Assembly (NCBI GenBank): GCA_964016885.1
Contig: OZ024746.1
Location: 28,768,001-28,832,000, forward strand
Source of the DNA: Eledone cirrhosa
Taxonomy: Eukaryota
DNA: 64,000 nt
Reading direction: 5' to 3'
Shown here: positions 57,455 to 57,965 of the stretch, one piece after another
Position numbering within the stretch: the first letter of the stretch is position 1
Layout: each line of letters begins with the position of its first letter
The notes under the pieces: generated by a model
The model's database searches: none
Told to the model about the DNA's origin: nothing
Seen by the model: only the letters and a program-made list of their open reading frames with translations
Program-made: the position numbers and the translations under genes

Positions 57455-57965
57455 ATAAACGGAAAAAATGAAACGAAATTTCATTTCCCACTCTTAGTAC
57501 GGCTGTTACTTAAATATAAGTATGTACACGTACATACACATATGTATACAGACATACAGTAGTATGTATATATATATATATACATTTTTCCGTTTATCGT
57601 TTTCGGTGCACCCGGCTGATTAACCCACTCGATATGCAAATTGGCCTACTCACCCGTTAATATGCATAAGGTAAGTATATACGTTCAACAATCTGGCAGG
57701 AAGGTATACGTTGCTGACGATAGCTAATAAGCTTGAAACTAGTACAGCGTTCCTTTGTCAGTGTTGAACAAATGAGCAACGATGGTTGCTGGACACTACG
57801 GCTTAATACGGGATGTTTGTTTACAAACACACCGAGCATTATAATAAATGTTCGGTGAATCCATACGTACATATATATATGTGTGCGTGTATGTATATAT
57901 ATATATATATATACATACTATTGTATGTCTGTGTACATATGTGTATGTACGTGTACATACTTATA
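57455..57965 (+). mobile_element. ~420-nt HHR family copy with inverted 5' segment, in (TA)n
   Basis: Minus segment 57455-57585, plus segment 57583-57965. Confidence 0.88.
57708..57750 (+). ncRNA. Minimal type I hammerhead ribozyme
   Basis: acgttg-CTGACGA-tAGCTaataAGCTt-GAAA-cta-GTA-cagcgt. Confidence 0.88.

Follow-up and report, generated by a model that had tools for sequence, protein, structure and literature searches.

Why do insertions of one short repeat family, lying at unrelated places in the same stretch of Eledone cirrhosa DNA, end at the same two internal points of their sequence and run from there into TA repeats? The question is raised by the insertion at locus IV and was pursued across the whole 64,000-nucleotide stretch analysed (the window), in which a self-search found the same family, F1, also at 20171-20988, 37670-39073, 45202-45725 and 18665-18721 (Table 1). 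Here, we propose that F1 is best read as a non-autonomous Penelope-like element (PLE) derivative of the animal retrozyme type, that is, as a PLE parasite. We further propose, with slightly better than even confidence, that its insertions arise by twin priming on both sides of one break, at sites set by a protein-RNA complex and with base pairing as a helper.

Table 1. Positions of the F1, F2, F5 and PLE features in the window.
Feature	Position	Strand	Description
Locus IV, whole insertion	57455-57966		one F1 copy; two outward-pointing arms (left minus, right plus), both running into TA repeats
Locus IV, left arm	57455-57585	-	3' end at site A (57455); holds 59-nt tail and ~70 nt beyond B
Locus IV, right arm	57583-57966	+	starts 15 nt 5' of internal A site (57597); crosses hammerhead; 3' end at B (57966)
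Locus IV, head-to-head joint	57583-57585		3-nt microhomology CAT (from the sequence)
Locus IV, left flank	57410-57454		TA microsatellite (target)
Locus IV, right flank	57967-58073		TA microsatellite (target)
Locus IV, minimal type I hammerhead	57708-57750	+	core 57714; palindromic helix III ACTAGT; predicted cut after 57744; U.U at helix II base
Locus I, single arm	20171-20988	+	~1.9 units; hammerheads 20210, 20632; 3' end at A
Locus II, left arm	37670-38400	-	~1.7 tandem units; hammerheads 38334, 37916; 3' end at B (37670)
Locus II, right arm	38399-39073	+	~1.6 units; 3' end at A (39073); joint microhomology GT at 38399-38400
59-nt tail, read through inside locus II arm	38597-38655	+	between B (38596) and A (38655)
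Locus III, left arm	45202-45267	-	tail plus 8 nt; 3' end 4 nt 5' of A, at AT dinucleotide
Locus III, right arm	45262-45725	+	almost exactly one unit; hammerhead core 45445; 3' end at B, 2-nt overlap
Locus V, tail-only F1 fragment	18665-18721	+	3' end at A; TA repeats on both sides
F2, two-arm layout	27608-27814		B2 end 27608(-), A2 end 27814(+); tail ~80 nt
Further F2 loci	16591-16799; 50976-51079; 53271-53512
F5	27360-27520		long arm (-), hammerhead core 27479, ending 27360; short arm (+) ending 27520, 2-nt overlap
Autonomous PLE, 3' part	62620-64000	-	C-terminal GIY-YIG; CX4CxxC linker upstream; one in-frame stop; hammerhead core 62825; runs into TA repeats

The F1 unit (reference unit 38399-38820) measures 422 nt with a GC content of 0.377 (37.7%), and both its size and its GC content fall in the animal retrozyme range (150-450 bp, <50% GC), with tandem units in loci I and II. 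F1 is non-coding: the longest stop-to-stop frame in 38399-39073 is 60 aa of low complexity, and no autonomous PLE ORF (RT plus GIY-YIG) was found in it. A 21-nt pattern from the tail gave no match among metagenome contigs, and none of the public runs listed with F1 was an RNA dataset. By pattern scan, each unit carries a type I hammerhead with a short palindromic helix III; the scan returned 7 cores in the window, all inside arms. With Rfam, no family reached its gathering score in the window and a search of 57580-57900 at E<=10 found no hammerhead. Where helix II begins at its base, the F1 copies have U.U, U-A or C.A, and not the G10.1-C11.1 pair that is conserved in PLE hammerheads (PMC4209133). 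Because the usual G-C pair is replaced at this position, cleavage by the F1 hammerhead may, to judge by its sequence, be weak.

All eight F1 arm ends in the window lie at site A (20988(+), 39073(+), 57455(-) and 18721, with 45202(-) four nt short) or at site B (37670(-), 45725(+) and 57966(+)). The two sites are 59 nt apart on a read-through unit, and all ends run into TA repeats. On a 422-nt unit, the chance of six ends (those beyond the two that define the sites) falling within 5 nt of them is ~2e-8. An earlier note on this DNA had claimed these same ends, apart from 18721 and with 57965 for 57966, and all were found. It had also placed the ends away from the hammerhead cut, and indeed A and B lie 147 and 206 nt, respectively, 5' of the predicted cut (after 38802). 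Its description of the insertions as independent is borne out: they represent separate events because their flanks are unrelated (no pair of F1 flanks scored above the threshold) and their inner joints differ, and their tails are 86-100% alike. The ends should nevertheless not be counted as six or seven free events, since three loci carry two inverted arms with one A and one B end each. Likewise, position 18652, which had been assigned to another family, is the 5' side of the tail-only fragment at locus V.

F1 arms read through A at 20519, 38033, 38655 and 57597, and through B at 38092, 38596, 39014 and 57514. Because read-through is this frequent, A and B are taken to be sites where cDNA starts and not where the RNA stops. 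A different possibility is that A and B are RNA ends or later cuts, made by processing or by endonuclease resolution, and not internal starts. Endonuclease-mediated resolution, the older account of the tail, is suggested as its source in the PLE text available to us (PMC8557442), and the RNA-seq read ends of PAc, the Poseidon element of Anolis, are reported to fall on start sites as well (PMC11167929). Against this, arms that pass through both A and B require full-length templates spanning the two sites, and the available account of PAc has its starts unmoved when the RNA 3' end was lengthened (PMC11167929). We consider RNA ends or cuts a very improbable origin of A and B. In the predicted fold, B sits in the loop of a 6-bp hairpin and A lies 3' of a second hairpin; a 14-bp hairpin predicted at the left end of locus III was discarded as an artefact of including the inverted joint.

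The earlier note had called for termini to be mapped on further copies. Four public runs, X1 (10,921 contigs, possibly the window's own source), X6 (15 contigs), X14 and X16 (one contig each, and so uninformative on ends), were aligned to one F1 unit, with the internal TA run at 38506-38552 skipped as repeat. The results cover 12 of the 204 loose-end rows from all runs, six of them from X1, of which three are 3' ends. Among these, the two best-supported 3' ends in X1 are B (38596, 33 contigs) and A (38655, 30 contigs), each followed by ATAT, in agreement with the window. The third listed 3' end in X1 is at 38745 (14 contigs), where the loose letters resemble the element itself, and no 3' loose end listed for this run falls on the hammerhead cut site. 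From X6, the listed single contigs end at 38596 (B), 38599 and 38603, the latter two being 3 and 7 nt off B. The head-to-tail joint is present in three of the four runs (X1, X6 and X14).

A and B ends also occur together. Two-armed insertions have one A-type and one B-type end in 3/3 F1 loci and in 4/4 loci of a second family, F2, an outcome for seven of seven insertions in two families that would occur 1 time in 128 (calculated by hand) if arms chose freely. The single F5 locus likewise has one end of each type. One inverted 5'-truncated arm and a one-sided tail are found in all of the two-armed F1 (3/3) and F2 (4/4) loci. The A+B rule is not universal, because the inverted two-armed loci 17666-18073 and 56850-57149 use the same site on both arms. 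A hammerhead-like core is visible by eye in 56850-57149 and is absent from the pattern scan list.

At the head-to-head joints of loci II, III and IV (3/3 checked), microhomologies of 2, 6 and 3 nt are found; that of locus III, GTAAGT (45262-45267), is the stem of the B hairpin. Arms begin near the other start site in two cases, 8 nt past B in the left arm of locus III and 15 nt past A in the right arm of locus IV. The eight F1 arms do not fit a clustering of 5' ends 8-12 nt ahead of the hammerhead core. Three single-contig inverted joints in X1, taken without regard to orientation, map to 38585, 38592 and 38648. Taken together, 5/6 inverted joints (2/3 in the window and 3/3 in X1) have one side no more than 15 nt upstream of A or B. 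In this post hoc comparison P is 0.0005, and it becomes 0.01 if the window is made two-sided. The exception is locus II, whose joint is not near A or B and whose arms exceed one unit. The tail-only pieces, locus V and one F2 arm, likewise have 5' ends close to the other start site.

Arms within one locus share private variants, as is seen in locus IV compared with locus II and in the tails of locus III, which are 100% alike and 86-95% alike to others. Since arms share such variants while joints differ between loci, each insertion builds its inversion anew. In locus IV, the A arm contains tail sequence that the B arm lacks; in loci III and IV alike, an origin by folding back of a single cDNA was rejected, as each arm has sequence that the other cannot supply. 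Separately, the right arms of loci II and IV (in the region of 38711 and 57648) share a letter found at ~1% of X1 summed depth. This suggests, on sequence grounds, that the two loci, 19 kb apart, may derive from a common source lineage.

These same joints bear on whether F1 might be an element that moves or multiplies as DNA, either a MITE with TA duplication or the product of fold-back or duplication of one founder. There are inverted repeats near the termini with TA on both sides, and two F2 loci share the same centre, as such an origin would lead one to expect. Yet no F1 locus repeats the arm lengths or the joint of another, and some copies have a single arm or tandem units. The two termini are also unlike, each unit has a hammerhead, and the flanks are unrelated. 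A TA-duplicating MITE in particular, with its fixed length and matching TIRs, fits neither the variable arms nor the unlike termini of F1. The variable joints already largely refute a DNA-level origin, to which, of the explanations weighed here, we give the least credence and which we regard as extremely unlikely.

Other repeats in the window share parts of this layout. Tail lengths are 59 nt in F1, ~80 nt in F2 and ~50 nt in F5. No hammerhead was found in F2 by pattern scan. The B-type arm of F2 stops at nearly the same place, ~60 nt in, in 4/4 loci, a hint of an F2 RNA with a fixed 5' end. The F2 locus at 53271 has ~95 nt of unrelated sequence between its arms, which is also found at 54040-54112. 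A hammerhead-bearing fragment at 29459-29580 (-), with its core at 29554, ends in CTTAT followed by ATAT. Between two TA runs lies a 63-aa open frame (29609-29797, -), which has the look of a retroelement piece, possibly of a PLE, but gave no Pfam match and no alignment to P0014 and is left unassigned. Also present are an inverted-repeat family with TA and CA runs at its centre and ends (52700-52950 and 53562-53690) and a 223-nt direct repeat (58092-58313 and 58697-58919; 605 nt apart, 93% alike) that lies between TA runs and is a partial tandem. There are minisatellites at 45859-46635 (48 nt), 49125-50138 (60 nt) and 36647-37184 (~30 nt).

In light of the TA repeats at every end, does pairing with TA choose the start site? 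Where the read-through sequence is known, element and TA target overlap by 3 nt at A, 5 nt at B, 3 nt at the F2 B end and 2 nt at the F5 B end. A random break in the F1 unit would give an overlap of at least 2 nt with P=0.25, at least 3 nt with P=0.15 and at least 5 nt with P=0.055. The rough chance of all four overlaps reaching at least 2 nt is therefore 0.004, a value that applies to four sites with a null drawn from the F1 unit only. A genomic TA overlap does not by itself prove pairing. For the TAT ends that the earlier note had listed in other families, the 3-nt overlap at 27608 is real (with read-through at 27734), whereas at 27814 the TAT may be target DNA. As a side observation, made post hoc, the 12 nt before the TA overlap look pyrimidine-rich (0.58-0.83) at eight sites, comprising F1, F2, F4, F5 and F6 ends, compared with a mean of 0.49 at 21 unused F1 tracts.

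The earlier note had gone further, proposing that a nicked TA end anneals to UA motifs and thereby itself selects the starts and causes the microsatellite targeting. The overlaps at A and B are real, as this proposal needs, and L1 is reported to prime with as few as 4 matching nucleotides (PMC3649969). Its difficulty lies in the sites left unused: alternating TA tracts with a length of at least 3 nt number 23 in the F1 unit, two of them as long as 10 and 14 nt, and there are 4 TTAT motifs, yet 21/23 tracts and 2/4 motifs go unused. The predicted circular fold has the 10- and 14-nt tracts largely base-paired, which could hide them. Against this, the unused tracts at 38479, 38482 and 38766 are predicted to be more open than A and B. 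Moreover, three A:U pairs carry too little information for targeting, and at some junctions the TA run measures just 3-9 nt. We judge annealing as the selecting agent to be improbable. Because only 2/23 tracts are used, others are as open, and B was used in locus III despite an overlap of only 2 nt, UA annealing cannot pick the sites. Something else sets the start position, most likely a protein bound to RNA structure, and A:U pairing is at most a helper in the choice. Thus, internal target-primed starts and overlaps of 2-5 nt stand from that proposal, and annealing as the means of site choice does not. Nor is annealing needed for TA targeting or for the missing TSDs: the (TA)n bias is tentatively put down to the endonuclease linker, and duplications are said to go unseen within microsatellites (PMC8557442). 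TA targeting is better placed with the endonuclease, as that paper hypothesises, and the missing duplications follow from the TA target under any model.

At the other extreme, pairing may play no role at all, with two start sites set by protein, as for PAc, and the TAT overlap due to chance in an AT-rich RNA. PAc is reported to start without homology (PMC11167929), the overlap is just 2 nt in F5 and at the B end of locus III, a T-to-C variant in the B motif (38594) accounts for ~6% of X1 summed depth, and several TAT ends may be target DNA. What speaks for some pairing is that element and target share 2-5 nt at 4/4 sites where the read-through sequence is known, that the A end of locus III is shifted by 4 nt onto a neighbouring AT, and that locus I, where the B motif is degenerate in both units and the junction has just 9 nt of alternating TA, is without a B arm (one case). 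We hold the reading without pairing to be unlikely, though it is the rival to which we give the most weight.

In L1, twin priming uses two primers from one break and produces an inversion. The steps that we favour for F1, with somewhat more than even confidence, are of this kind. F1 RNA, either circular or left uncut by its hammerhead (arms are seen to pass through the hammerhead), would be bound by a PLE RT-endonuclease, an inferred helper that is probably of Neptune type. The endonuclease would cut both strands of a TA run. Two internal reverse transcriptions would then start, one per DNA end, one at A and one at B, these being the borders of the PLE tail; the ends and their A+B pairing are seen here, and internal two-site initiation with extension on both strands is drawn from the available text on PAc (PMC11167929). 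The protein-RNA complex would fix A and B, and 2-5 A:U/T:A pairs between the TA primer and UAU would help to set the exact register. The cDNAs would vary in length and would often end close to the other start site. Their 3' ends would pair through 2-6 nt, as the joints seen here suggest, and subsequent fill-in would leave a head-to-head insertion with the tail on one arm. Both the role of pairing and the order of the steps are what we infer.

A bolder version has a PLE dimer holding one circular or uncut RNA and priming two sites at once, in the fashion of telomerase, through 3-5 A:U pairs with both TA ends, each enzyme running until it meets the other's hybrid and the cDNAs then annealing. 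We rate this dimer reading as rather doubtful. Were it true, the TA bias would arise in the same single step as the head-to-head inversion and the tail on one side only, and UAU start sites would be an adaptation of the non-coding parasites to this step. The inverted joints that lie close to A or B are a thin hint of such a collision between two enzymes on one RNA. Slippage at UAU might also lengthen the TA run.

Which element might supply the enzyme? The window contains the broken ORF end of an autonomous PLE (63206-64000), with a GIY-YIG domain above the Pfam cut-off; the PLE at 62620-64000 has 59% identity to a 698-aa RT-GIY-YIG protein. A linker of its CX4CxxC type is described for Neptune and Nematis in the text available (PMC8557442). 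No DNA similarity was found between F1 and this PLE. Because of its in-frame stop and the lack of DNA likeness to F1, it is a candidate, judged from its sequence, only for the kind of helper. Among seven autonomous PLE loci, most continue into the next tandem copy and an end is visible in L005 only, which leaves the family sequence right after TATAT, ~50 nt past the hammerhead cut (L005 2280-2500), a point in favour of TA pairing. This end abuts, by eye, an opposite-strand hammerhead-like motif, tail to tail.

Comparison with known systems shows that much of this is already in print: internal priming, TA targeting and hidden target duplications are published, and the F1 ends are largely explained by the published PLE tail mechanism. 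PAc, in the available text, cuts and extends both strands, is predicted to dimerise, and can use uncut RNA (Frangieh et al. 2024, PMC11167929). It has two internal RT start sites in vitro, its tail being the sequence between them; these sites are not homologous to the cut DNA and are the same on both strands (PMC11167929). Pairing is thus not a general need of PLEs, since PAc starts without homology. PAc and F1 are alike in that their 3' ends fall at two fixed internal points with an optional tail between them, that the target is AT-rich and that the ends lie off the hammerhead cut. They differ in that F1 is non-coding, with a 59-nt tail and U/A-rich starts that overlap the target by 2-5 nt, whereas a PAc start lies in an AC-rich stem-loop. 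Strict A+B pairing is not described for PAc in the available text of PMC11167929. What we add is that A and B ends are strictly paired in a parasite without coding capacity, together with a modest and unproven role for pairing between primer and template.

Insertions of endonuclease-bearing PLEs more broadly are described, in the parts of these papers available to us, as partial tandems with an inverted 5'-truncated copy and often a one-sided tail (Craig et al. 2021, PMC8557442; Arkhipova et al. 2013, PMC3846280). The former reports a microsatellite bias, for (TA)n in Naiads, hypothesises a role of the linker in Neptune, and notes that duplications are not discernible in microsatellites. The tail described there is 30-40 nt (PMC8557442), shorter than those of F1, F2 and F5, which are of the same kind. 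In these papers, the inversion is put down to self-priming or left without an explanation and the tail is attributed to endonuclease resolution, whereas the F1 data favour two separately primed cDNAs. Indeed, the origin of inverted one-tailed PLE insertions and of the microsatellite preference is named as open in the available text of PMC8557442. In a literature search that covered mainly open-access papers, including the main text of PMC11167929, no published model was found that has PLEs insert by TA annealing or by twin priming. Junction details in the figures of PMC11167929 may bear on the homology claim. Being short and abundant, with two sharp start sites, F1 offers a cheap test system for PLE insertion.

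L1 resembles what we propose for F1 in that a few terminal pairs assist priming, as given in the text available (PMC3649969), and differs in that it starts in a poly(A) tail and its second primer lands variably, whereas both F1 starts are internal and fixed. Animal non-LTR retrozymes are described, in the accessible text, as tandem non-coding units of 150-450 bp with <50% GC and a type I hammerhead each (Cervera and de la Pena 2020, PMC7229834), and a 2026 preprint proposes that retrozymes are PLE parasites (bioRxiv 10.64898/2026.07.22.740005). In the available part of that preprint, the words 'tail' and 'priming' are absent and end geometry is not treated. The footprint left at the F1 ends thus ties animal retrozymes to PLE enzymes from another side, beside the phylogenetic argument of the preprint.
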